Below are positions 42,456 to 57,824 of a DNA stretch of 64,000 nucleotides, in pieces. This DNA comes from a virus. Positions within the stretch are counted from its first letter, which is position 1, and each line of letters starts with the position of its first letter. The translations under genes were made by a program, and so were the position numbers. The DNA lies in IMG/VR virus record IMGVR_UViG_3300042090_000890, positions 1 through 64,000 of that record. The stretch is one strand, 5' to 3'. Under the pieces are notes generated by a model that was not told where the DNA came from, did not search any database, and saw only the letters and a list, made by a program, of their open reading frames with translations.

Positions 42456-44654
42456 ATGGCCAACGAAGAAGGCAAGAAAAAGCGGTACCAACAGAGACAA
42501 GAAATTGTCGCGTTGGACCCCAACGCTTTGAAGTTACTCAAAGCGGAAGCTGACGCTCGCCAGAAATCCAACGATGAAGAAGAAGTCACTCCGGCGGATA
42601 CCGGCGTGTTGGGCGAGATCGTAAAATCGATCAAAGCTCAGAACGCGATGCAGGCGGCCCAACTGGAGCGAATGTCGTTCCAGGTCGACCCGAACGCGAA
42701 CTACTCCGGCGCTCTCGGTTTTTACAAGCTCAAGCAGAACTTAACTCCTGATCATATCATCAAACGGATCTGCGGTCCGGGCGGCGACGAACTCGTTAAC
42801 GAGATTCTCCAAGCTCGCTCGAATCACATCTCGTCCTTCGGTCGGCCACGTACCGATCGTTTCAGTGTAGGCTTTGAATTCCAAGACATGGACAAGAACG
42901 CCAAGCGTTCGGAAGAAGATCAGCGGAAGATCCAAGAAATGATCGATGCCGCTAAGAAGACCTTCTGGCAATGCGGTCGCGGTACGCTCGAAGGCGAACT
43001 CGACCAAGTAAACCTGTCTCAATTCTTAAAGCTGGTGACCCGCGATGGACTTGGATTCGGACGCCTAGCTACTGAAAGAGTTTGGTGGACCAATCCAAAA
43101 ACTGGCAAGAAAGAGCTGTACGCATGGCGCGCAGCCGATGCCGGAACAATGCTCAAGATTCTGCCGCAGAAAGAGCACGATCAATCTCTCCGCCAAGAAG
43201 CTATTCGTCAGTTGCAACAGATCAAAAACAAAAAGATCGACATCGAGAAGTACAAGAAAGATGAGTACCGCTACGTTCAGGTTATCGAAGGTAAACCTAT
43301 TCAGACATTCACTGAAGAGGAAATGGTCATCTACAATTTGTATCCGACGACCGGCATCGAATACAACGGTTACCCCCTGACCCCGATCGATCAAGCCCTT
43401 AACGCAATCACGACTCACATCAACATCACGGTCCATAACAAACTGTACTTTCAGCACGGTCGCGCATCCAAAGGGATGTTGGTATTCCAGTCGGATTCTA
43501 TGGACGAGGCAGCTGCCCAGCGCATTCGCCTACAGTTCCATCAGTCTATCAACTCCGTCCAGAACTCGTGGCGCATGCCGGTGTTCGCGATCGGGTCTGA
43601 GGACAAACTGACTTGGGAAGCAATCGACAACTCAGGCCGCGATGCAGAGTTCCAATACCTCATGGACAACAATGCTCGGGTGATCTTGTCGGCGTTCCAG
43701 ATGTCGCCGGAAGAATTGCCGGGTTACGCCCACCTCGCTCGCGGAACGAACACGCAGGCTCTCTCGGAATCTGACAATGAATGGAAGCTCACCGCAGCCC
43801 GCGACGTTGGTTTACGTCCTCTGCTAAGCGACATTCAAGATTTCTTGAACACGCACATTCTCCCGTTCGTCGACGCGGAACTCGCGAAGACGCACCAGAT
43901 CGTGTTAACTGGTCTCGACAAGGATTCTCCGGAAAAAGAGAATACCCGCCTGCAGCAAGATATGGCCGTTCACATGAACTACAACGAAGTCATGGAACAG
44001 GTCGAGAAGAACCCGATCCCGGTCGAACTGGGCGGCGACTTCCCTCTCAATCCTCAGTACCAAGCAGTCGCGGATAAGTACCTCACGGTCGGCCAGATCC
44101 TGGAGAATTTCTTCAAGGTCAAAGGCGCCGCATCCGATCCTCGTTATCAGTACATCCGTGATCCGTTCTGGTTCCAGAACAAACAGCTCATCCTCCAGGA
44201 AGCTCAGATCGCGATGCAGCAGTCCATGCAAGCTCAACAGATGATGCAACAGCAAGCGCTGGCCGAGCAAGGTATCGCGACCGATGAGAACGGCAACCCC
44301 GTTCAGCCCGGTGACGATGACGACAAAGGCGGCGGAGATGACTCCGGCGGAGACGATGATTCGGGCGGAGACGACTCCGGCGGCGGAGATCAGCCTCCGG
44401 AACAGACATCCAAGGCGGAGAAAGCGATCGACATCGTGAAAGAAATCACTGCCAAGAACGTGGCCTGGTCGGCGAACAACTACGTCGTCCTCGAAAAGGC
44501 CATCCGCAACAATCACAACAGAATCTCGCGACAGCTCCTGAAGCGTCACAATGAACTTGTGACGGCCACGATGGATAACTGGAAGCGCCAGTCCGCGAAG
44601 GAACTGGCAGCCATGGGCAAAGCGCTCAAAGACGGTAAGAAGAAGGGGAGCTGA
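42456..44654 (+). CDS. portal protein
   Basis: Position between TerL and MuF; YNGYPLTP, NKLYFQHG..SKGML, ILSAFQMSPEEL, GLRPLL pattern. Confidence 0.85.
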   Translation: MANEEGKKKRYQQRQEIVALDPNALKLLKAEADARQKSNDEEEVTPADTGVLGEIVKSIKAQNAMQAAQLERMSFQVDPNANYSGALGFYKLKQNLTPDHIIKRICGPGGDELVNEILQARSNHISSFGRPRTDRFSVGFEFQDMDKNAKRSEEDQRKIQEMIDAAKKTFWQCGRGTLEGELDQVNLSQFLKLVTRDGLGFGRLATERVWWTNPKTGKKELYAWRAADAGTMLKILPQKEHDQSLRQEAIRQLQQIKNKKIDIEKYKKDEYRYVQVIEGKPIQTFTEEEMVIYNLYPTTGIEYNGYPLTPIDQALNAITTHINITVHNKLYFQHGRASKGMLVFQSDSMDEAAAQRIRLQFHQSINSVQNSWRMPVFAIGSEDKLTWEAIDNSGRDAEFQYLMDNNARVILSAFQMSPEELPGYAHLARGTNTQALSESDNEWKLTAARDVGLRPLLSDIQDFLNTHILPFVDAELAKTHQIVLTGLDKDSPEKENTRLQQDMAVHMNYNEVMEQVEKNPIPVELGGDFPLNPQYQAVADKYLTVGQILENFFKVKGAASDPRYQYIRDPFWFQNKQLILQEAQIAMQQSMQAQQMMQQQALAEQGIATDENGNPVQPGDDDDKGGGDDSGGDDDSGGDDSGGGDQPPEQTSKAEKAIDIVKEITAKNVAWSANNYVVLEKAIRNNHNRISRQLLKRHNELVTATMDNWKRQSAKELAAMGKALKDGKKKGS
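44311..44390 (+). repeat. Gly/Asp/Ser coding repeat in portal C-terminus
   Basis: GDDDDKGGGDDSGGDDDSGGDDSGGGD. Confidence 0.7.
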
Positions 44655-45535
44655 TGAAGCTCACCGACGCCCAGCGGAATGTCATCATCGAACGCATTGA
44701 GTCTCTCTTCGAGGGGACCAAAGCGCGCCTGTTAGGGTCGATGTTCAAAGGCCCGAAGCTATACTTCGAAGTCGTCCGTCGGTCGGACCCTCTGCATACT
44801 ATCGAAGGCTTGTACAATTTCACGCTGAAGACCATGTACGGCGCGACTGCCGAGCCGAACAAGAAAAATATCGAACATCTAGCTGAAATAACTGGGAATT
44901 ATATGGATTCCCAGCAGCTGAAGATCAAGAATCACATCTTGGCGGACGTGGCCAAGGCTAAAACGCCGTCAGAAGCGATCCGCTCGATACGCGGTCACTT
45001 CGAGCAGGCCGGGAAGTACGTCGATCTGCTAGTATCGAACGAAACCCGCATCGTTCAGACGTACGCCTCGCGCGAAGGTATCGGCAAACTGGCGTCGGAC
45101 ATCGGAGTGAAAGACCCGACCGTCGTATTCCTAGGCGTTTGCGACCATAAAATCTGTAAGTATTGCAAGAGCATGTACCACGACTCTGCGGCGATCCGCA
45201 AGCCGAAGCCGTATAAGCTGTCTCAGGTACAGGAAGGGTATTTCAAGCCGAAGGATTGGGACGGGAAGACGCCGCACCAGGCTCCGCTACATCCGCGTTG
45301 CCGACACGTAATGAGCTTCGTGCCGCCGAACTTCGGGTTCAACGACGCAGGCGTGATCGAGTTCAAGGAATTCGGCTACGATTACCACAAAGAGTACTGG
45401 AAGCTGAAGAAAGCCGAGGAACTGCCGCCTGACTCAACACCCATGGCGAGTTTCCTGAGTTACGACGAGTACTTGGAGATGAATATCATCCACGAAGCTG
45501 AACATCTACACGATGAGTTCTGCACGCACGATTAG
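44654..45535 (+). CDS. MuF/SPP1 gp7-like head morphogenesis protein
   Basis: NETR...D.KICKYC...APLHPRCRH; follows portal. Confidence 0.8.
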   Translation: MKLTDAQRNVIIERIESLFEGTKARLLGSMFKGPKLYFEVVRRSDPLHTIEGLYNFTLKTMYGATAEPNKKNIEHLAEITGNYMDSQQLKIKNHILADVAKAKTPSEAIRSIRGHFEQAGKYVDLLVSNETRIVQTYASREGIGKLASDIGVKDPTVVFLGVCDHKICKYCKSMYHDSAAIRKPKPYKLSQVQEGYFKPKDWDGKTPHQAPLHPRCRHVMSFVPPNFGFNDAGVIEFKEFGYDYHKEYWKLKKAEELPPDSTPMASFLSYDEYLEMNIIHEAEHLHDEFCTHD

Positions 45536-45561: not shown

Positions 45562-47310
45562 TTGGTGGTCACTTTGGGTCTGAAGATTGACGGTATCGCG
45601 ACATCTGAACACATTGATTCGTCCGGTGAATTGCTCATCGTCGAGAATCATGACATCTCCGATCTTGTGTCGGGCAAAGGCGTCATGAATTGGGAGCACT
45701 CCAATAAGTCCGATGACACGATTGGAGCAATCATCTACGCCAAGAAAATTCTCAAGAAGACCGACTGCGAGAACGACCGCCAGCGAAAATACTGGAATAC
45801 CGTCAACAAGCCGTTCGTTTACATCATAGGCGAGCTGTACGATGACGAGGAACATTCAGGTGCGCTTGCCGTCGCCGCCATGATCCGGTACTACGCCAAG
45901 AAATCTGAGAATCTCCTGACAGGCTTCTCCATCGAAGGCGCCACGCTCGAACGGGATGATTATATCCTGAAAGAGTCTGTCGGTCGCCGGGTAGCCGTCA
46001 CCCTCCGCCCGTGCAATAAGACTGCAATCGCTGGGTTGCTGGAAGATCCAAAAACGAAAGATATCGCTAAGTCGATCGAGGCAATGATGGCCCGCGTCGA
46101 TGGCAGCCTCGTCGAAATCGACTCGGTCATCCTCGACGATATGTTCATGCCGAAGGACCCGATTCTCGACCTACATAAGGCCGTCGAAAGTCTCGCGAAG
46201 TCGATCGAAGCGGGCATGTACAATGTCACTCCGTCGCAGTTGATCGGCCAAGCCGCACTTACCCGCGAGCACATCAGCGGATTCCAGCGGAACCGTGTTA
46301 AAGCTGCCGTCCGCGATTGGGACCGCAAACGTCCTCTCAAGGAAGTTCTGAAGAGCGCTCTACCGGAAGTGTCTGACGATTACATCGGACATTTCGAGAA
46401 GTTGGCCGAAGAATTGGCACTCAAGAAAAACATGCCATCCACGAAATTAACTCGCGTTGGGGCTAGACATTCGCCAAATCAACATCAAAATGAAGACCAA
46501 CAGAAGTTGATCGAAGGCTTGTACTTCGACCCGAAGAGAAAGTTCGGCGGTAAAGATTTTGATCCTGGCCACACCGGCTATCAAACCGCGATCACGAAGC
46601 ATAAAAATGACGCAGGCGCGAACGTGTTGGTCAAACAGCCCACGGGCAAATGGGCAGAGAACGCCACTCATTACTACGAGAACGCTCGCGATGTTTTTGG
46701 AATGGGCAATCACGTACCGGTTACGAATTATTTCAAGCCGCCCAAAGGATCTCAGAAATGGGATATGACTACCGATACTACGGATCGTCAGCCTGAAGGC
46801 CTGCATCATCAAGCGATGGAACTTGTCGATAAAGCCAAATCGCCAATGACCATGAACGACAAAGACCTGGCTAAACCGTTGCAAAGAGCATATGATAACG
46901 GAGACTTGAACAAACTCATGATGATGGATCAGATTCTAGGCGGAGCGTCGGATAGACACCACGGAAACTATCTGATTCATCCTAAAGGCCACGTTATGAA
47001 CATCGACAACGATCAGGCTTTTTCTTACAATATACCGGCTCCGACACCGGCGTACATGTATCAGCACATCGATCAGCCGATACACCCGGAAGCGTCAAAA
47101 TGGATAAAAGGAATTGATCCAAAAGCGTTGATCGGGAAGATGGCGGACCAAGGTCGTTCACCGGAAGAAATAAAATCCGCCGCTATGATTCTTAAACTGC
47201 ATCAGAAATACGCCGACAAGCCTATGACAGGACGCCAACTGTGGGACACTATAGGCAATCATGCTACGGCAGTTCGTCGTGAAGAGCAGCGCAAGAAGAA
47301 GGTAGCATGA
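45562..47310 (+). CDS. prohead protease fused to an MCP-N-terminus-like segment and a PI3/PI4K-HipA-like kinase domain
   Basis: Protease: GIATSEHIDSSGE, NWEH, GFSIEG, VAVTLRPCN; kinase: VLVK, DRHHGN, NIDN. Confidence 0.8.
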   Translation: MVVTLGLKIDGIATSEHIDSSGELLIVENHDISDLVSGKGVMNWEHSNKSDDTIGAIIYAKKILKKTDCENDRQRKYWNTVNKPFVYIIGELYDDEEHSGALAVAAMIRYYAKKSENLLTGFSIEGATLERDDYILKESVGRRVAVTLRPCNKTAIAGLLEDPKTKDIAKSIEAMMARVDGSLVEIDSVILDDMFMPKDPILDLHKAVESLAKSIEAGMYNVTPSQLIGQAALTREHISGFQRNRVKAAVRDWDRKRPLKEVLKSALPEVSDDYIGHFEKLAEELALKKNMPSTKLTRVGARHSPNQHQNEDQQKLIEGLYFDPKRKFGGKDFDPGHTGYQTAITKHKNDAGANVLVKQPTGKWAENATHYYENARDVFGMGNHVPVTNYFKPPKGSQKWDMTTDTTDRQPEGLHHQAMELVDKAKSPMTMNDKDLAKPLQRAYDNGDLNKLMMMDQILGGASDRHHGNYLIHPKGHVMNIDNDQAFSYNIPAPTPAYMYQHIDQPIHPEASKWIKGIDPKALIGKMADQGRSPEEIKSAAMILKLHQKYADKPMTGRQLWDTIGNHATAVRREEQRKKKVA

Positions 47311-47912
47311 AAGTCTACGTAATCAAATCAGATCATTCCGAAGTGCCGTTAGCCGAAGTCCGCACGGACGGCGATACGGCCCACTTCGTAGTCGACAATA
47401 CAAACGGAAAACTGCCCCAGATGGTCCAGAGCAGTCTGCCAAAATTACGTGCGATTTGCGACAATTCTTCGCATATGCACATGGAAGAGCCGAAAACAGC
47501 GACCGTCAATCTTCTGCGGTACGTTATGGACAACGGTGATGTGGTCGAGATTACGTCGGACGGCCATACCGTCATGCTCAACGGACACCTCCTGCCGCAA
47601 GAAGAGAAGGATGCGTTGTTCAACGCCTTTACGCGTGGCGAAATCAAAGTCGCTCGTAAGACCGATGTACAGCAGGCATTGCCGGTCCTCCCGTCGAATC
47701 CGCCGTCGGAGTACGCTAAGCCGCAGAGCAAGATGAATCCGACAGTGCTTGGCATGATAGAAGATGACCAAGACAAAAAAGATACCGCCCGTGAGATGGC
47801 CACTCGCGACTATGATCCGGCCATTGACGATGCCGAGCTGTCTGATGTAGAAGATGCTGATTGGACGAAAGAATTGATGCGCTGGCTCAAATACGGTGAC
47901 AAAAATGAATGA
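47307..47912 (+). CDS. hypothetical head-module protein
   Basis: ATGA overlap. Confidence 0.65.
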   Translation: MKVYVIKSDHSEVPLAEVRTDGDTAHFVVDNTNGKLPQMVQSSLPKLRAICDNSSHMHMEEPKTATVNLLRYVMDNGDVVEITSDGHTVMLNGHLLPQEEKDALFNAFTRGEIKVARKTDVQQALPVLPSNPPSEYAKPQSKMNPTVLGMIEDDQDKKDTAREMATRDYDPAIDDAELSDVEDADWTKELMRWLKYGDKNE

Positions 47913-50900
47913 CGAAAAGAAATTAGCACCAGACGTACCGGCTGACACACTCCACGCTCACGTGGAGCGCCATATGGCATTACCGGAAGAGTCTCAGTCA
48001 GACAATGACAACGAAGACTTCGCGGCTGAAGTCGCCTCGCATCCGAACCTTGCGCCGCATTCCATTGAGAAGCTGTACAACCACGTGATGAAGCCTGTAT
48101 CTGCCAATTCTACGACGGCGGCCACTGGCGAAGCAGAGCCGATGTCGAATGTGATCGTCGGTAATCTGCTTAGAAATCCTAACGCACCGCAGAATATCAA
48201 ACAGGACTTTGCGCTCAAGACGTTTCATCCCGACAATCCGTCGTCCGATCTGCACGAAGAGTTGGCTGATTCCGGCATTCTGAACGAACAGCAATTGAAA
48301 GGCATGTCCGAGCAGGTTTTGAAAGCTGGCAAAGAGCCACACGCATACAAGCACCTTGGCCCGAATTACTACATGAAGTATTTTCGAGGCCGGTCGCAGC
48401 AGGACCCCAACGAACTCGACGAGGACGGGAAGGAACAGCATTCTCGCGAGATGGAGCTGGGAGAAAAAGGGTTAGTTAACTCGTCTAGGCACACGCCGGA
48501 GACATTGGATCAGACGATCGACGCGTTTTCGGCTTCGAAACATGACCCGCACGGCCTTATCGAAAAATTGGTTAACAATAGAGAAGACTTGTCTAAAGAC
48601 CAATTGAATAAGATCCATCAATGGTATGATTCCAACAAAAATGAAAAGAGCAACGCCTACAACGACGACTATTATCATAGGCAGCGCATCGATAGCTTGC
48701 TAGAGCATAAGAATGTCGATCCAGCGTTGCTTGCCAAATATGCTGTAGGCAAACGGGTCAGCACAGAAGCTCTCAAAAATCCACGCCTGCCGCAGGAATC
48801 GATCAACGGTATCATAAAACGTATAAAAGATCCCAACGAATGGGACACTCGGAACAGGGTAGAAAGTCTTCTCGAAAATCCGTCTATATCGAAAGACCAG
48901 GTTCGCGCATTGATTCAGAAGGGTTCCAATAAAGCCATCAAGCATCCTCTGGCCGACGAAGCCGCTGTCCGCGACTATTGGCAGAAAGGTTCAAAGGACC
49001 TAGACTCATCCCGCGATATCTTGCAAGCGAAGAATTTACCGCCAGACGTGTTAAAAGAGCTTGTCAATCACAAGAATCAGGAAGTCGCCGTCAAAGCTCT
49101 CAACCATCCCAGAGCGGACATGGACGTGGTCAACGAAGGTCTCAAACGCCGGGCAAAGACCGTACAGGATGCCGCACGGCTACATCCGCTTGTAGCCGAG
49201 CAACAGGTCAAAGAAGGTTTGAAATCGGGCGCGACATCTCTCGCGAACGTGTACACAGATCCGAAATTCGAAGCGCAGTTCGACAAGCTCCCGAAGGTGG
49301 ACCAGGAAGCGATCTTCAATAAGGCACACGAGAAGTACCAAGGTACCAACCTCGCCGAGTTGGCCAAGAAGACCAAGGAACGTTCTGAAAACGTCATCAA
49401 CAGCAAGATGAACCTGGCCATGGACGAGCGCGTCCCGGCAGCCATCCGCGAAGCGCATGGTAAAGACATTGCCAATATGTTCGAGGATCAGGTCCCGAAG
49501 AATCAGATGCTGGTCCAACGCACGACCGACGTGATGAGCAAAAATCACCCGGACGACAATTCTCGTCTGGTGACGGCCATTTCACATCTTGCGATCAACG
49601 GCAACAAAGATGCCCAGAGAGCGATTCTCAATAATCCTGGCTATCTCTCGGAAGTTCAATCCAATCTGGACTTGAAAGACGCCGAACCAGATTTCCTGGA
49701 AAGCGTATATCGCAAAAGACAGGAGAATCAGGCCAATAACGTACAACTGTACGATCGCGTCGGACACCCGGAATTGTTCGATAAATCCGGCCACACGCTC
49801 AGACGTGTTTTCGAAGCTCCCAACTTGCCGTCTAATGTGTTCGACGAGATTGCTCGGAACGGACAACAGATGGACCAGATCGGTGCCGGAGACTATTTCA
49901 AAAGATACAATGATCTGCCTGAAGACCAACAGAATCAGAAATACGAGCACATTCTAAATTCCGGTTCGCAAAAGGCAGCCATTTCAGTCGTCCGCGCTAA
50001 AGCGCCTCCGGCATCTTGGGACCGTGCATTCAACATGCTGACCCCAGACAATAAGCAACGTCTGATCAAAGACGAAGTCGATCACGTGAAAAGTCATAGG
50101 CCGGACGTTTTCCACAATGCCGTGCTGGGCATGTACAATGATCCGGCAGACGCAGATCGTCCTGGCATGAGCAGATACGAGAGCTATCAAGCGAAAGCCG
50201 TTAGCAAATTAGATCCGGAATCGCCGAATGACCGCTCGGTACTTGAACAGCTGATCTCAATCCCAGAGGCTCAGCCAGGGCATATGCCAGACGAAGGATT
50301 GCTGGATAATATCCCAGAGAAAATGTACAGCAAGCCCGGTGACGATTCTCTGATTGACCATGCAGCAGCTTCCGGTAAAGGTCCTCTGGCATACAATATG
50401 CTTGCCCGGAAGATGAACACTCTCAGTCGTGAGGCGTACGTCGGCAGTTACGAATCGGAAGATAAGAAAGCAGCAGCCAGACAGAAAGCTGAAGACCTTG
50501 TTACTTACTTGCACGGACGTGTTGCGTCGATGCCATCTTTCAGCGACGCGGATACAGATAATCCGACCGCCGAGAATTGGTACTCACTGATGACTCGTCA
50601 GAAGCAAGGGTACCACGACGATCGGTTCATGGGAGCTTTGAAAAAAGCAGGTGCGAACCTCGATTTCTTGGCCGACATGCCCGGCAAGGACGGCGAACTC
50701 GTAAAACGCCAGGCGCTCACGGACAACCTTCTGTCTACGCAGAAGCTGCAAGAAATGTCGCAGGCCAATTCTGTGAAAGATATTCTGGCCATCGGCAGTC
50801 CAAAGTTACGTCAGCAATCTTTGGATTCTTGGGTCGTCCAAGGAAATCATACGCCCGAAGATTTAGAACACCTTGCCAACAAAGTTGACGCATCGGTGCT

Positions 50901-53900
50901 CAATCCGGAGTCGTTCGAACACGGTCGCCGTAAGTCCATGGGCGAAGAGGCTGTCAACGTATTTAATTCCCGCATCAACAACTTGATAGACTTGTACAGG
51001 ACAAAGAGTCCAGACAGTCTCACGCATGTGATCAACAATGCTCTGCAAGTCAGCCGCTCTGACGACGATCTCACCCAAGAAGATGGCCGCCGCATCGTAA
51101 AAAATATCTTGAATCACGTCAACGGCGCAGCATACGGTTCGCCGGAAGAGAAAGCGTCCACGCTCCTGAGCACGTACATGGCTCTCAAAAAACGAGAGAT
51201 GGCGCCCGCCAATATGGGCAAGCAAATAGAGCGTGCTGCCGTAGAAGGTAAAGACTACGACACGATGATTAAGCTGTCGGATCACAAGATGCTTTCCGAA
51301 GAGGGCATAAGCTCTTTGATGAAAGCCGCCGCGCAGCCACAGACGCTCAATTCGCGCCAGATCGCAGGCGTATCCTCGATGCTCACTTCGAATACTCCGC
51401 CTAGCGCTGTACTTGACACCGCCAAGGCCTTCGAGAACAAAACGGCGCAGGAAGTGGCCGAAGGTAAACGCCCTTCGCCCGCCGACCGAACGAAGTTGAT
51501 GAGGAATCTGTTCGGCACGTTCAGCCCCAGTGAGTCCGGCCCGGAAGAAGTTCAGAAGAACGAGTTTTTAGTCAACTACATGAAAAAACAAGCGCTGGAC
51601 CCGGCAGTCTCCAGATACGCCAATACGCATTTGGCAAACATGTCTGTGCAGTTGGCAGAAGCTGGCGACGAAGATCAAGGCATCAGTCTATGGGAACAAT
51701 TGCCGAATCAGTTGACAGATTTCGACGGCAACTATCCTGACATACAAGGTGCTATCCCGTCAAAAATGCTCAACGACCCTCGTTTCATTGAGGCCTGCGG
51801 ATCGGGATGGAAACTTTCGTCCCTGGCCATAAACGCCGATAGGCTCACAGGTGCGAATGCCTCTACCCTCACGAATCGTGCGTTGGCCGCCGAGCCATAC
51901 ACTGTTGACCACCAGCAGTTGTTCCGAAATTTTGAAAATAACGAGTTCGTGGCACCAGAAGATTCTGTCAAGTTGGCGCGCAGCATGCCCGATGACAAGT
52001 TCAATTCTCTCACTCGCGAGCTTGGCCAGTCCATGGCAGGCAATCTGATATATGCTGCCCATGCCAGGATTAGAGATGTCGACGCGCTTGTAAAAGATCC
52101 GAATCTGGCTGCCCCGAACGCGCCGTTTATGGGAGCTGAACACCGCAACAAGATTCTGACAAATCTTGATGCATATGCCACTGCCATCAAAAACGCTGAT
52201 GTTGAAGAAGAAACGCCGAATTTGAAGGACAAACTTGGCAAAGTGTCCGAAATGATTGGTACGATCCACGGCCACTTGAAGACGATCGCCAATCATATGC
52301 GTTTGCAGGCGCCAGACCAGGTAGACAATATTGAATTTGCTAGGGATCACGCCGCGATGCTGACTACGCTCAGTAAAATCGCTACCACTAATCTGCAATT
52401 AGACCGCGACGATGCACTCAAAGTTATGGATATGGTAAAAGAATACCACTCTGTTCAGCAGGCAGCCGGTAAAGAACCTATGCCAGAGAAGACGTATCCT
52501 GCCACAAAGGGCCTCGTCGCCCGCGCCGAAAATTTCGAGGAGCAGGATTGGCGGGAAATGTTCAAGGCCGACCCACACGCAATTTACGCGCTGAGCGACC
52601 GAGCCACTATCCCTACTGAAGCCTTGAACGCCGCCGAGATCACCAAGATCGAAAAGTCTCGCAACAAAGACGAGAATCGAGCCAAGACCTTGTTCGTTAA
52701 GACGTCCAAGGATTGGTTCTCGAAGATGTCGAAGGAAGACGTTGCTCACCACGGCAAGGATCTTCTGCATCTGTACATCAAGCTGAAAAATGCCGATGAA
52801 ATCTTCCATAACGATTACACGTATGCGATGGAAGAGGGCATGAAGTACATGGGCGACAGTATGTCGCACAAGGAACTAACCGATCTTCTACAAGAGTCCG
52901 GCGCTTCTGACTTGCGAAACTCGTTGTTCAAGACTGCCGTCGAAAACGGTGTGGGCGGCGTAGAAAGTTTGAAAGCGTACGCCAAAGAATTCCACGACCA
53001 GATATTCTCAGGTCATTCAGATATACATGACATGGAAGCGTCGAATTTGAAGATGAAGTTAGAGCCAATCACAGCATCGCCGTACATAGATGAGGATCTC
53101 GCAGGACAAGTGTTCGATATGTACGATAGGAATAAGGGCGCCATGCACGCAGCCGCAGTTGACCTATTGGCTAATACATCAACTCCAGCGAAATCCGTGA
53201 AAAAGTTCACCGACACATTACTCCAAAATCATAAAGACGGATACAAGGACATTAATAAGAGAGCCTCTGCGAATCTGGCAAGTCAGATTATGCAGCATCC
53301 GAATGTGTCCGAGGAAGACCTTGGCGAACTTTTCGCTCTCAGCAACGAGCAGTTCCCGAAATACTTCGCTCCGTCTGGGAAGTTCAACCCGGCGCTAACG
53401 AATCCGACGTACGGCGGCAAGCTGTTCCGAGCCATGCCATTGGCTCTTCCGGAATCTCAAAAGATGGGTCCGAAAGGTGAAGGCGGTACGGTAGATGAAG
53501 GAAAGTGCCTCCGGGACATTAACTTGCAGCACAAGGATTACGAGCGCATGAAGTCGACCATGGCCATGATACCTGCCGAGGGTATGGCCTGGGCCGAGTT
53601 CAAGCGCAAGTTCCCGGCAGAAGAAAAATCTCTGCCGCCTTCCGTCAAAGCTGTGTTCACGTCAGCTCAGAACAAACCGGTCATGCCTGAGCAATTCGCG
53701 CAAGCTATGCGTTCGCTGGATGATAATTCCAAGAAGTACCACCTGACGTATTCGGAATGGGGATCTGGCCTGCAGCGTCATAACCCTCCTGGCCGCCCGA
53801 ACTTGGTTGTTCAAGTAAACAATTCCGAGGCTTCCGAGAAGGAACTTTCGCAGGACCCTAAACTTTGGTCGTTGTACCAGCATCTACTCCAACAAACGAA

Positions 53901-54498
53901 CGGCATTTCGAATGGTTCGATCGGCATGCATCCGACTACCCCGCACATGGTTTCCTGGTCGCGCGTCGACACTGATCAGCAGACGAAAGGTAAGAACGCA
54001 TGGGCGATCGAAGAGTACCAATCTGACTTTGCTCAGAAGTTCCGCCGCAACTTGAAAGCTCTGGCCAGCAAGTTCCCGTCCGGAACGAAGCTGAGCGGCC
54101 AGCATGTAACCGCCGAGGACATGAAAAAGTACGCGAAGACGATCGACAATCACCTTTCGGACTGGACGGAAGCATCCATGCAGGCGGTGATCGACAACGC
54201 GAAGGCGCAAGGCGTCACGCATTTGTACATGCACGGTGCCGAGATGCGCGGGTACATGTCGAACGGCGGGCGCTACAGCCGCGAGTTCTGGGATAATCCG
54301 AACACCAAACCGTTCACGGTTGGGTTCCGGAAGATTTACGGCGAAAATCCTGCAAAATTTGGCTTCAAGGAATGCGACTATACGGATTACCCGAAGCATA
54401 ACAAGGACATGCTCAACAATTTGAAGAAAAACAAGCTGTCCACGAAGTGCTGGGTTCTTGAGCTGCAGCCTCCGGCGCCCAAGAAGAAAAAAGCCTAA
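47896..54498 (+). CDS. giant (2200 aa) helical-repeat protein, probable internal head/ejection protein
   Basis: Many [NH]P-x-x-P helical repeats; distinct C-terminal alpha/beta domain; head-module position. Confidence 0.7.
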   Translation: MTKMNDEKKLAPDVPADTLHAHVERHMALPEESQSDNDNEDFAAEVASHPNLAPHSIEKLYNHVMKPVSANSTTAATGEAEPMSNVIVGNLLRNPNAPQNIKQDFALKTFHPDNPSSDLHEELADSGILNEQQLKGMSEQVLKAGKEPHAYKHLGPNYYMKYFRGRSQQDPNELDEDGKEQHSREMELGEKGLVNSSRHTPETLDQTIDAFSASKHDPHGLIEKLVNNREDLSKDQLNKIHQWYDSNKNEKSNAYNDDYYHRQRIDSLLEHKNVDPALLAKYAVGKRVSTEALKNPRLPQESINGIIKRIKDPNEWDTRNRVESLLENPSISKDQVRALIQKGSNKAIKHPLADEAAVRDYWQKGSKDLDSSRDILQAKNLPPDVLKELVNHKNQEVAVKALNHPRADMDVVNEGLKRRAKTVQDAARLHPLVAEQQVKEGLKSGATSLANVYTDPKFEAQFDKLPKVDQEAIFNKAHEKYQGTNLAELAKKTKERSENVINSKMNLAMDERVPAAIREAHGKDIANMFEDQVPKNQMLVQRTTDVMSKNHPDDNSRLVTAISHLAINGNKDAQRAILNNPGYLSEVQSNLDLKDAEPDFLESVYRKRQENQANNVQLYDRVGHPELFDKSGHTLRRVFEAPNLPSNVFDEIARNGQQMDQIGAGDYFKRYNDLPEDQQNQKYEHILNSGSQKAAISVVRAKAPPASWDRAFNMLTPDNKQRLIKDEVDHVKSHRPDVFHNAVLGMYNDPADADRPGMSRYESYQAKAVSKLDPESPNDRSVLEQLISIPEAQPGHMPDEGLLDNIPEKMYSKPGDDSLIDHAAASGKGPLAYNMLARKMNTLSREAYVGSYESEDKKAAARQKAEDLVTYLHGRVASMPSFSDADTDNPTAENWYSLMTRQKQGYHDDRFMGALKKAGANLDFLADMPGKDGELVKRQALTDNLLSTQKLQEMSQANSVKDILAIGSPKLRQQSLDSWVVQGNHTPEDLEHLANKVDASVLNPESFEHGRRKSMGEEAVNVFNSRINNLIDLYRTKSPDSLTHVINNALQVSRSDDDLTQEDGRRIVKNILNHVNGAAYGSPEEKASTLLSTYMALKKREMAPANMGKQIERAAVEGKDYDTMIKLSDHKMLSEEGISSLMKAAAQPQTLNSRQIAGVSSMLTSNTPPSAVLDTAKAFENKTAQEVAEGKRPSPADRTKLMRNLFGTFSPSESGPEEVQKNEFLVNYMKKQALDPAVSRYANTHLANMSVQLAEAGDEDQGISLWEQLPNQLTDFDGNYPDIQGAIPSKMLNDPRFIEACGSGWKLSSLAINADRLTGANASTLTNRALAAEPYTVDHQQLFRNFENNEFVAPEDSVKLARSMPDDKFNSLTRELGQSMAGNLIYAAHARIRDVDALVKDPNLAAPNAPFMGAEHRNKILTNLDAYATAIKNADVEEETPNLKDKLGKVSEMIGTIHGHLKTIANHMRLQAPDQVDNIEFARDHAAMLTTLSKIATTNLQLDRDDALKVMDMVKEYHSVQQAAGKEPMPEKTYPATKGLVARAENFEEQDWREMFKADPHAIYALSDRATIPTEALNAAEITKIEKSRNKDENRAKTLFVKTSKDWFSKMSKEDVAHHGKDLLHLYIKLKNADEIFHNDYTYAMEEGMKYMGDSMSHKELTDLLQESGASDLRNSLFKTAVENGVGGVESLKAYAKEFHDQIFSGHSDIHDMEASNLKMKLEPITASPYIDEDLAGQVFDMYDRNKGAMHAAAVDLLANTSTPAKSVKKFTDTLLQNHKDGYKDINKRASANLASQIMQHPNVSEEDLGELFALSNEQFPKYFAPSGKFNPALTNPTYGGKLFRAMPLALPESQKMGPKGEGGTVDEGKCLRDINLQHKDYERMKSTMAMIPAEGMAWAEFKRKFPAEEKSLPPSVKAVFTSAQNKPVMPEQFAQAMRSLDDNSKKYHLTYSEWGSGLQRHNPPGRPNLVVQVNNSEASEKELSQDPKLWSLYQHLLQQTNGISNGSIGMHPTTPHMVSWSRVDTDQQTKGKNAWAIEEYQSDFAQKFRRNLKALASKFPSGTKLSGQHVTAEDMKKYAKTIDNHLSDWTEASMQAVIDNAKAQGVTHLYMHGAEMRGYMSNGGRYSREFWDNPNTKPFTVGFRKIYGENPAKFGFKECDYTDYPKHNKDMLNNLKKNKLSTKCWVLELQPPAPKKKKA

Positions 54499-55584: not shown

Positions 55585-56430
55585 ATGAATAAGCCAAAAT
55601 GGACTGACCAAGACGTACAGAGCATCCTTGACAGCGTTGAAGAAACGATTGCCAAGGCCGAAGCTCTTGCGAAGGCAGATCCGGCTGATCCAGATCCGAA
55701 GGACGATAAAAATGCGCCTCCGGATCAGTCAGCTGCACCGGCTTCTTCTGACGCGCCGCCTTCCGGCGACGCTCCTCCTGCAGATGGTTCGGCAGACGGC
55801 TCTCAGCCGCCTCCGGACGGTTCGCAACCTCCGATGGACGGCTCTCAGCCGCCCGCAGAAGGCCAAGAACAACAACTTGCAGCCGAAGGACAACCTGGTG
55901 AAGACCAGCCCCTGTCTGACGAAGAGCTGGCTCAGATTTACGGATCGATGCCGCCCGACGAACTTGAGAGACATTACTCGATCATCCGACAGCAGCTCCA
56001 AGCTGCCTACAGCCAAGATCAAGGTGCCGCTCCTGCTGCTCCTGAGTCTGCTGCTCCTCCCGCTCCTGCTGCACCGGCACCGCAAGGTCCGCCGCAAGAG
56101 ATGGGCAAGTCGGAGAAAGATGTGATCGCTGCTCTCGAAAAGCGCGTGGCACAAGCCGAAGAAGCCAATCAAATGGTTGTGAAGGCTTTCGAAGCCCTCG
56201 CAAAACCGGCCCGCAAGTCGATTACCGAGATTCAGGTCATGAACAAGACCGAAATCGATAACTCGCAGCAAACCGGCCCGATGACGGTCGAGCAAGTCAA
56301 AGAGAAAGCCCGCAAGCTCTCTCCGGCCAAGCTCGAAAAGTCGGAACGTGACCTGATAAACCGCCTCTTCATCTCAGGTGAAGGTGCAGAAGAAGTTGAA
56401 CGAATTATCCACTCTAAGGGAGGGAAATAA
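55585..56430 (+). CDS. capsid scaffolding protein
   Basis: Acidic Pro/Ala/Gln low-complexity protein with coiled coil immediately before MCP. Confidence 0.7.
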   Translation: MNKPKWTDQDVQSILDSVEETIAKAEALAKADPADPDPKDDKNAPPDQSAAPASSDAPPSGDAPPADGSADGSQPPPDGSQPPMDGSQPPAEGQEQQLAAEGQPGEDQPLSDEELAQIYGSMPPDELERHYSIIRQQLQAAYSQDQGAAPAAPESAAPPAPAAPAPQGPPQEMGKSEKDVIAALEKRVAQAEEANQMVVKAFEALAKPARKSITEIQVMNKTEIDNSQQTGPMTVEQVKEKARKLSPAKLEKSERDLINRLFISGEGAEEVERIIHSKGGK

Positions 56431-56432
56431 TA

Positions 56433-57824
56433 ATGGACGATCTAGTCAAGACTCTTGAGAGTCTCGTGAAAACCTTGGAGGCCGGTAACTACAACGTAGC
56501 GCCGTCGCAGTTGGTCCAAGGATCAGCACTCCAGATCGAAAACCTTGAGCCTGTGATGCACAATGTGACGTTTGACGACAGTCACATCAAGCTTCAGAAG
56601 CTCTTCTCGGTGAAGAAAGCCAAGTCATTGCTTGTGCAGTTCAACCGCCAGCTGTCTTATGGACGGTTCGGTGGAACAGCGCAGCGTGAAGGCGCGGTTG
56701 GCGACTTGAACGTCGGCGACTATATCCGGGCTACGGTTCCGATGTGTTTCTACTCTTGTGTTGAGCGCGTAACGATCGCGGCCAACATGGTTGAGACCAT
56801 CGACGGCAAGAAAGCCGAAGACCGTGAGGCAGATAACGCCGCAATCAAATTGTCGGCGGACATCGAGTTCGACTCTTTCAAAGGAAAAGCCGATTTCTCG
56901 AACAACGGCGTTTTCGACGGCAACCCGGCCCTCATGCCGGAACTTCCGAGCATGCTCGGTCTCGACTCGCAAGTTCGCATGTCAGACATCCTCGTTTCGA
57001 CGCAGGATCTGATGTTCGCATCTTACGGATCGAACAAGTCGGTCGTTCTCTCGCAGAACGGTTCGCTTGATCAGCCGATCATCGAATCCGCAGCTCTCCG
57101 CAGCCGCATGAACATGGGTAAAGCAGAAACCATGTTCGTTGACCCGGTCATTCTGTCCGGTTACAACACCTCGGTCGCTCTCGGTACGGGCGTGAACTCG
57201 ATCCAACGGATCGTGCTCGCAGGCTCCGCACAAGACGCTACCGGTGCTGACCTTCGCAGACAGTGGGTCTCGAACGGAACAGTCGGTCTCGAAGACTCGC
57301 GCTTCTTGTCCGGCAAAACCTCGCCTCTTCGCGCAATGATCGGCAGCCCGCTCCCGCCCGCAACTGCGGTCGGCACGCCCTCCGGCTCCGGCGCTCTCAT
57401 CCCCGCTGGCACGTATGTGTACGGTGTGACGGCTGAGAACGAACGCGGTGAAGGCGTCGAGATGTTCTCGGCATCTGTTGTGGTCGCAGCTGGCCAGCAA
57501 GTGGCTCTCGTGATCGCAGGCGTTGCAGGCGCTTCGCTCTACAACGTGTATCGCGGCACTTCGGCCTCGAACGCTTACTACATCGGTCGCATCGCTGCGA
57601 ACGGTTCCGCAAGCGTGACCTTCACCGATCTCGGCAACAAGTCGCCGGGCTTCGTGACCGGTTACCTCGTCCAGAAGGACACTTGGGGATTCCACGAGTT
57701 GGCTCCGTACTCACGTATGAAGCTCGCAATCGCGGACTTGAGCGTTCCGGAAGCGCACTTCCGCTTCCTGACTCTCGCAGGCTACCAGCCTCGCAAGAAC
57801 GTCATCGTCGACAACTTGTTCTAA
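56433..57824 (+). CDS. major capsid protein (SPO1/Twort-like)
   Basis: 463 aa; KTLEAG...PSQL...AL.IENL N-arm, EG, internal beta-sandwich (TYVYGVTAEN...YNVYR...FTDLG); strong RBS and downstream terminator. Confidence 0.88.
   Translation: MDDLVKTLESLVKTLEAGNYNVAPSQLVQGSALQIENLEPVMHNVTFDDSHIKLQKLFSVKKAKSLLVQFNRQLSYGRFGGTAQREGAVGDLNVGDYIRATVPMCFYSCVERVTIAANMVETIDGKKAEDREADNAAIKLSADIEFDSFKGKADFSNNGVFDGNPALMPELPSMLGLDSQVRMSDILVSTQDLMFASYGSNKSVVLSQNGSLDQPIIESAALRSRMNMGKAETMFVDPVILSGYNTSVALGTGVNSIQRIVLAGSAQDATGADLRRQWVSNGTVGLEDSRFLSGKTSPLRAMIGSPLPPATAVGTPSGSGALIPAGTYVYGVTAENERGEGVEMFSASVVVAAGQQVALVIAGVAGASLYNVYRGTSASNAYYIGRIAANGSASVTFTDLGNKSPGFVTGYLVQKDTWGFHELAPYSRMKLAIADLSVPEAHFRFLTLAGYQPRKNVIVDNLF

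Follow-up and report, generated by a model that had tools for sequence, protein, structure and literature searches.

Phage T4 loads its proteins IPI-III and Alt into the prohead, where the protease gp21 trims them, and ejects them with its DNA, an experimental precedent for this route of delivery. In herpesviruses (UL26/UL26.5), phage lambda (C/Nu3), and phage P2 (gpO), the protease enters the procapsid through a sequence that it has in common with another assembly protein. The “polyvalent proteins” of phages and conjugative elements are multi-domain proteins encoded in virion modules, for which packaging and injection have been predicted; among their domains are assemblin-like peptidases, invariably at the C-terminus, along with truncated Ser/Thr/Tyr-type kinases, GGDEF, and GNAT (Iyer, Burroughs, Anand, de Souza, and Aravind, 2017; PMC5512222), and T4 Alt is described in the same work. 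Here, we analyze a 64,000-nucleotide stretch of virus DNA (positions 1 to 64,000 of IMG/VR record IMGVR_UViG_3300042090_000890; hereafter, the window) in which an open reading frame (ORF) of 582 amino acids (aa) at 45562..47310 (+ strand; TTG start, intact and open) joins a prohead protease, a copy of the N-terminus of the phage’s own major capsid protein (MCP), and a PI3/PI4-kinase-like domain in a single chain. We consider it probable that this protein is a canonical head-maturation protease with an appended, swappable enzyme, which enters the procapsid by virtue of the fusion and is cut free there.

The T4 system resembles what we propose for the window, in that host-modifying enzymes are loaded, trimmed by a prohead protease, and ejected with the DNA. 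T4 cargo, however, consists of separate proteins with a short N-terminal tag, whereas the window’s cargo is covalently attached to the protease; moreover, the window’s shared segment is internal (residues 203-238) and appears to copy the mature capsid arm, unlike a capsid-targeting sequence of the T4 type. UL26/UL26.5, lambda C/Nu3, and P2 gpO share the capsid-binding end of the scaffold, whereas the window protein shares the N-terminus of the MCP. As in polyvalent proteins, several unrelated enzyme domains occupy one head-module chain, in the window a protease and a kinase, with relatives adding a ~600-aa domain or GGDEF. Unlike in polyvalent proteins, the essential maturation protease is N-terminal, the PI3/PI4-kinase-like domain has both lobes, and protease and kinase are separated by a capsid-arm copy.

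Two cultured phages encode shorter versions of this architecture. Listeria phage P100 gp15 (YP_406391.1, 264 aa) and Enterococcus phage Revolver gp76 (264 aa) have a catalytic domain homologous to that of the window protein, are encoded in the same order of portal, protease, scaffold, and MCP, and, like the window protein, contain an internal copy of their own MCP N-terminus around a K|S site. Both proteases stop after a ~60-aa tail, whereas the window protein runs on for 293 aa into the kinase. The nearest cultured relative of the window phage is Myxococcus phage Mx1, whose MCP is 52% identical to the window’s. Its 1239-aa “putative prohead protease” (WNM70322.1; genome OR576727.2) is 41% identical to the window protein across residues 3-290, a span that takes in the arm copy; in Mx1, this copy matches Mx1’s own MCP (KAMEAGNFNAxPSTL), and the protein ends in the same kind of kinase (DRNDGN...HIDN). 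Mx1 has in addition a ~600-aa middle domain with no counterpart in the 97.9-kb contig from which the window is taken. The protease of phage Felix O1 belongs to a different family from the window protease.

An earlier annotation made from the window’s letters without database searches (the sequence-only reading) knew of no description of this arrangement. That claim was too strong, since packaged multi-domain effectors have been described (PMC5512222) and UniProt labels a 584-aa full-length relative “PI3K/PI4K catalytic domain-containing protein”. In the literature, we found no description of a copy of the MCP arm in a protease, nor any work dealing with similarity between protease and MCP, the head proteins of Mx1, or a protease fused to a kinase; the Mx1 genome announcement makes no mention of protease, kinase, cyclase, or capsid.

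The same reading had divided the protein into three parts, and profile matching (phrog_1028), the BLASTP match to the MCP, and structure prediction with Foldseek comparison all agree on this anatomy. The motifs quoted for it are all present, namely NWEH (residues 43-46), GFSIEG (121-126), and VAVTLRPCN (144-152) in the protease and VLVK, DRHHGN, and IDN in the kinase. Residues 1-160 (45562..46041, +) are a Herelleviridae-type prohead protease. The phrog_1028 profile, “head maturation protease”, matches residues 9-155 (E 8.8e-7), and tblastn comparisons with annotated head maturation proteases give E values of 2e-64 for Mx1 and 6e-5 to 4e-4 for Listeria and Enterococcus Herelleviridae. In a Foldseek search of BFVD, many “prohead protease” and COG3740 models were matched (E 1e-9 to 1e-6). 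The 582-aa ORF has 100 homologues, mostly of 520-600 aa and with >90% query coverage. An alignment of 89 full-length homologues (A1) is the basis of our conservation counts and of our AlphaFold2 (AF2) model, which has a mean predicted local distance difference test score (pLDDT) of 86.5 for the whole chain and scores above 90 at protease residues 10-160. H46 and S123 are invariant in A1 and H98 is at least 90% conserved, making these three the likely catalytic residues. We infer that the enzyme cleaves the MCP, the scaffold, and itself at L-x-K|S/T/A sites.

Beyond the catalytic domain, residues 160-240 are weakly modeled as a helix (200-216) followed by coil, and it is here that the capsid arm is copied. 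Residues 203-238 (46168..46275, +) correspond to residues 3-38 (56439..56546, +) of the 463-aa MCP, which is encoded at 56433..57824 (+), matches phrog_752 (E 1.5e-34), and is also homologous to SPO1 Gp6.1 (9vel) and phi812 MCP (5lii). BLASTP of the ORF against the MCP reproduced the gapless alignment that had been claimed for these segments, with 20/36 residues identical and 27/36 similar (E 2e-8). A six-frame search of the 97.9-kb contig returned this pair as the sole significant match of either segment (E ~3e-9; the next at 0.23-2), and no third copy of the arm motif was found elsewhere in the contig. At the DNA level, the two segments are identical at 66/108 positions (61%), including 29/36 second but 15/36 third codon positions. 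Because the third positions have diverged, the likeness is held by selection on the protein and does not stem from recent DNA duplication or gene conversion.

The pattern of identity within the copy is informative. At least 90% conserved among the homologues are L211, K213, T/S214, L215, A217, G218, A223, P224, L227, A232, L233, and E236. When 37 copies are each compared with their own MCP and anchored on the cut lysine, identity is 76% at P3, 100% at P1, 81% at P1′, and 95-97% at P4′ and P5′, and as far as P24′ many positions still show 60-92%. Upstream of P3, in the propeptide, most positions are at 6-32%, with 42-47% at P8 and P10. The segment thus seems to be mostly a copy of the mature arm, the part that follows the predicted K|S/T cut. 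Likeness extending to P24′ exceeds what protease subsites need, and is the best argument that the copy also binds something.

We surveyed 79 related viral loci, 40 of which contain both the protease and the MCP genes; in all 40, among them a distant group with only remotely related MCPs, a segment of the protease resembles the N-terminus of that phage’s own MCP. The cargo-less protease of Listeria phage P100 matches its MCP over residues 160-201 versus 14-55 (24/42 identical, E 1e-11), and that of Enterococcus phage Revolver over residues 164-202 versus 16-54 (51% over 39 aa, E 9e-10). Protease and MCP also have lineage-specific variants in common: AGNYNVAPSQL, AGYGGAGxPTxL, and, in locus L019, AGTYAGTAP. 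A phage’s own MCP is the best scorer for 14 of 38 protease segments, with a median rank of 2, and none of 10,000 permutations reached the observed mean. To judge by these sequences, proteases of this type have long carried the arm copy as standard, and it was not built for the kinase. One locus, L025 (9983-12169), is the only one to have lost the K|A-L-E-A-G cut-site block (ELLMKYNVAPTQLNGYSALQTE), and it keeps the distal arm residues.

A K|S/T cut within the copy, as the sequence-only reading had suggested, can be placed by homology. The MCP chain in PDB entries 9row, 9rox, and 9roz (439 aa) starts at S25 of the 463-aa phi812 MCP (5lii), after VVK24. The phi812 K24|S25 bond aligns to K13|T14 of the window MCP, the likely maturation cut (56469-56474), and hence to K213|S214 of the protease. 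The predicted self-cleavage site is therefore L211-A-K213|S214 (46192..46203, +), aligned to MCP L11-V-K13|T14. Between the copy and the kinase lies a helical linker (residues 239-289; 46276..46428, +), modeled by AF2 as helices at 240-251, 259-266, and 272-289, with W253, P258, L259, K264, A265, P268, Y274, and F278 at columns at least 90% conserved; it contains a further candidate site, V262-L-K264|S265. The module border, L287-K288-K289|N290 (46420..46431, +), is a candidate second cleavage site: K289 is invariant in 89/89 homologues, and likeness to long relatives ends at residue 288-289. Three lysines in A1 combine near-invariance with a hydrophobic residue at P3 and a small one at P1′: K213, K264, and K289, each of which precedes the kinase. 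Cleavage at L-K-K289|N290 could detach the kinase from the arm.

The C-terminal domain (residues 297-582; 46450..47307, +) has the predicted kinase fold, modeled at a pLDDT of ~95. In a Foldseek search against the PDB, human PI4KII-alpha ranks first (4hne/4hnd, E 1e-7), followed by Rio2 and PI3Ks, all at probability 1.00 (E 1e-7 to 1e-5) and with the same two-lobed fold. The best structural matches are thus human type II PI4-kinases (PI4KII-alpha, 4hne/4hnd/4pla; PI4KII-beta, 4wtv), which have a DRxxxN catalytic loop, although sequence identity is ~13% and Rio2 protein kinases score nearly as well. Type II PI4-kinases carry IDN in place of DFG. The A1 profile searched against PDB sequences matched only PI3K, PI4K, and mTOR, across the catalytic loop. 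PF00454 is precomputed in most of the 100 homologues and is carried by homologues at 50-67% identity, and distant relatives pass its cut-off of 27.1 bits (P0127, 28.9; P0140, 27.8; P0133, 27.6; P0121, 27.4). These results uphold the PI3/PI4-kinase half of the signature proposed from sequence. We rejected the other half, a HipA-type kinase, as no HipA chain is among the top 50 Foldseek PDB matches or among the profile matches; HipA_2 appears solely as a secondary overlapping match in the multi-kinase relatives P0110 and P0143.

The kinase is apparently active, and phosphotransfer is predicted, because its catalytic residues are conserved in 76-88 of the 89 homologues. The catalytic loop D464-R-H-H-G-N469 (46951..46968, +) aligns to GDRHNSN of PI3K-alpha, with D conserved in 76, R in 88, H in 76, and N in 79 sequences. 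I481-D482-N483 (47002..47010, +) occupies the place of DFG, aligned to HIDFG of PI3K-alpha (D 85/89, N 82/89). K358 (46633..46635, +), in VLVK at residues 355-358 and on a strand at 354-358, is lysine in 79/89 sequences and is a candidate ATP-binding residue. The substrate could be lipid or protein. This kinase domain is found in 284 sequence clusters, often C-terminal in long proteins. As side observations, P0110 (3184 aa) and P0143 (987 aa) contain three or four tandem PI3_PI4_kinase domains (183.8 and 100 bits in Pfam), and the same genome encodes, outside the window at 68190-69992 (+), a second, free-standing kinase-like ORF of ~597 aa (DRHHGN...IDH) that is 33% identical to the fused kinase over 61 aa of the catalytic-loop region (E 1e-4). 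The phage thus appears to encode two PI3/4K-like kinases.

The sequence-only reading had offered, as a test of its model, that the copy should be conserved while the domain downstream varies, and this is what we observe: the copy is followed by the kinase, by GGDEF, by the ~600-aa domain, or by nothing. The proteases of L020 and L039, from phages whose MCPs are 72% identical to the window’s, end 6-7 residues after LKK, and there is no kinase gene in the 16-20 kb at these loci. In a quick maximum-likelihood tree of the N-terminal module (IQ-TREE), L020 is nested among kinase-bearing short forms with 99% SH-aLRT support. A sister clade has the ~600-aa middle domain in common, followed by the kinase, GGDEF, or nothing; GGDEF replaces the kinase in L027, L032, L038, L042, L047, and L048 (Pfam E 1e-8 to 6e-17). 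On the protease tree, forms with the kinase and forms with GGDEF intermingle, and well-supported branches (SH-aLRT) of this quick tree force at least 5 changes. The existence of cargo-less relatives, together with this interspersion, identifies the kinase as an optional and exchangeable appendage on a complete protease.

Several further observations concern the cargo. Mx1 has a separate “nucleotide cyclase” gene (L001:13139-13870) two genes downstream of its protease-kinase fusion, while relatives fuse GGDEF to the protease. In L033 (7564-12351), and also in L034 and L044, the shared middle domain is split by a ~340-aa insert, such that Mx1 residues 43-135 and 131-616 map to 387-484 and 823-1299; the insert has a weak Pfam Intein_splicing match (533-798, E 0.004) and may be an intein within the protease-cargo chain. 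Among the other BFVD matches are viral proteins of 501 aa (Nudix domain) and 679 aa (ferritin/DPS domain), the 1340-aa ADP-ribosyltransferase of Mycobacterium phage Onyinye, and a 490-aa PI3K/PI4K-domain protein of archaeal virus HSTV-2 (L7TJZ0); their names and lengths hint at fusions of a protease with a further domain.

In the mechanism that we consider probable, residues 1-289 would be a canonical protease of the SPO1/Twort/A511 type, comprising a serine-protease domain, an arm copy with an L-x-K|S/T site, and a helical tail. The copy would have two jobs. As a substrate-like cut site, it would allow the protease to process itself, and as a likeness of the MCP N-terminus, it would let the protease bind that segment’s partner, whether scaffold or neighboring subunits, and so co-assemble inside the shell. 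In other phages with the HK97 fold, scaffold binds at the N-arm. The kinase, joined after L-K-K289, is part of the protease chain and would therefore enter the procapsid together with it. Cuts at K213 and probably at K289 would then free a folded, PI4KII-like kinase of ~33 kDa which, being too large to exit the shell as small peptides do, would presumably stay in the head and be ejected with the DNA.

Several points weigh against this reading. Pfam returns no protease or kinase match for the 582-aa protein at E <= 1, so that PF00454 falls below its gathering score here. In the AF2 model, the arm copy has low confidence scores (pLDDT <50 at 217-235) and is not docked. The co-variation test is inflated by shared ancestry. 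In a distant group of loci, L061-L080, whose MCPs are only remotely related to the window’s, the proteases are 460-560 aa long and have ~300 aa between the catalytic domain and the copy (e.g., L061:9965-11638), a sequence with no Pfam family in L061 and L073. Their copy is near the C-terminus, for example at 482-511 of 558, and since the extra domain precedes it, “cargo follows arm” is not a general rule. The literature consulted yielded no virion proteomes, N-terminal sequencing, or activity measurements for either this phage or Mx1. Finally, the fused kinase might do its work ahead of assembly, only to be degraded afterward.

A possible but doubtful alternative is that the arm copy serves chiefly as an activation peptide or pseudosubstrate, which fills the active site in cis, silences the enzyme until it is within the procapsid, and is then cleaved, with targeting left to another part of the protein such as the helical tail (240-289). 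The zymogen activation of T4 gp21 is a parallel. The near-perfect agreement between copy and true substrate at P3, P1, P1′, P4′, and P5′ speaks for such a role, as do the location of the copy directly after the catalytic domain, via a flexible, low-pLDDT linker (160-200), and its universal presence in this protease type with or without cargo. Yet subsite recognition alone leaves the conservation out to P24′ unexplained, and AF2 does not put the segment in the active site. A pseudosubstrate role can coexist with delivery of an appended cargo.

It is unlikely, in our judgment, that the kinase is fused simply for co-expression and works, undelivered, in the producing cell or the assembling head on head, scaffold, or host proteins. 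The gene’s late-operon position and its start/stop overlaps with neighboring genes are consistent with this, the free-standing ORF at 68190-69992 indicates that the phage also uses unfused kinases, and L020 and L039 show that heads are built without the fused one. Set against it are the alternative cargo, a GGDEF cyclase with no obvious assembly role; the recurrence, across hundreds of sequences, of fusion to a protein guaranteed to be inside the procapsid; and the restriction of conserved cut-site-like motifs to the region upstream of the kinase.

We regard as quite unlikely the model that the sequence-only reading itself put forward, in which cleavage at LAK|S frees a fragment whose arm mimic binds the inside of the capsid lattice and thereby keeps the kinase in place until it is ejected. 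The concentration of likeness on the prime side, in the mature arm out to ~P24′, would suit docking, and so would the tracking of each phage’s own MCP and the invariably C-terminal position of cargo relative to the copy in the Mx1-like clade. Each capsid subunit, however, has its own arm, leaving no vacant docking site evident, and AF2 shows the segment disordered. The idea that the copy is the kinase’s address fails in particular because the same copy is present in the 264-aa P100 and Revolver proteases, which have no cargo, and comes after the extra domain in L061-L080. The arm’s existence without cargo, the subunits’ own arms, and the invariant L-K-K289|small site, which may sever arm from kinase, together make docking less likely. 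Last, a chance, low-complexity, or functionless recent-duplication origin for the protease-MCP likeness has only the short length of 36 aa in its favor and is refuted by the E value of 2e-8, the lack of any other significant match in the contig, the diverged third codon positions, and the copies in 40/40 loci and in two cultured Herelleviridae-type phages (P100 and Revolver).

Returning to the reading of an appended enzyme released in the procapsid, we extend it tentatively to a wider proposal: the copy and the L-x-K|small sites may form a general, undescribed loading-and-release device of SPO1/Twort/Mx1-type heads, in which mimicry of the MCP N-terminus recruits the protease and which the Mx1-like clade has made into a delivery vehicle, bringing PI4K-like and GGDEF enzymes into the next host cell as the DNA is injected and serving host takeover or counter-defense. 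We found no description in the literature of how prohead proteases of the SPO1/Twort/A511 type are recruited into the procapsid. A co-evolving arm copy in every member checked, including therapy-relevant Listeria and Enterococcus phages, provides a concrete hypothesis for this recruitment that mutation can test. In a large clade of uncultured ~140-170-kb phages, for which Mx1 serves as a cultured model, the protease is extended by a complete kinase or nucleotide cyclase. Should these enzymes leave the head together with the DNA, they would constitute a new class of phage effectors, made in advance and active ahead of phage gene expression, and the protease module would lend itself to loading capsids with foreign proteins; otherwise, what remains is a curiosity of domain fusion.

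The genes around the fusion form a head module. The source contig has a G+C content of 52%; near-identical DNA was found in four wetland metagenome studies, the sample of origin perhaps among them, and no RNA run was among the sequencing runs that matched. The gene order is portal, MuF-like protein, protease-kinase, 201-aa ORF, 2200-aa ORF, two small ORFs, scaffold-like protein, and MCP, so that the protease gene lies in the head module with the portal on one side and the scaffold and MCP on the other, as is usual for prohead proteases. The portal protein (42456..44654, +) matches PF04860 (E 4.7e-12), and the MuF-like minor head protein (44654..45535, +) has weak matches to phrog_115 and phrog_4728 and a homologue in Mx1. 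The MCP itself was modeled poorly by AF2 from a 20-sequence alignment (pLDDT 43.6), with a tentative N-terminal helix at residues 2-16.

Between the protease and scaffold genes lie two accessory ORFs of 201 aa (47307-47912, +) and 2200 aa (47896-54498, +), whose starts overlap the preceding stop codons. The 201-aa ORF has only a sub-threshold Pfam match (SPP1_Dit, E 0.0044, below the cut-off), and the 2200-aa protein belongs to no Pfam family and is not similar to the Mx1 fusion protein by BLAST. Both genes are present in L002, L003, and L014, whereas the kinase-bearing L008 lacks the pair, as do the kinase-free L020 and L039 (within the 16-20 kb searched). As they are missing both with and without the kinase, they are accessory head genes that vary independently of it.

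Directly upstream of the MCP gene is a gene for a scaffold-like protein of 281 aa (55585..56430, +), with homologues in 21 loci. The first half of this protein is acidic, proline-rich, and of low complexity. Four K|S-type motifs are kept across the 21 relatives: an N-terminal LAK|A/S, M-x-K175|S176, P208-x-R210-K211|S/A, and L-x-K252|S. These putative sites fit a single protease specificity acting on the MCP, the scaffold, and the protease itself.

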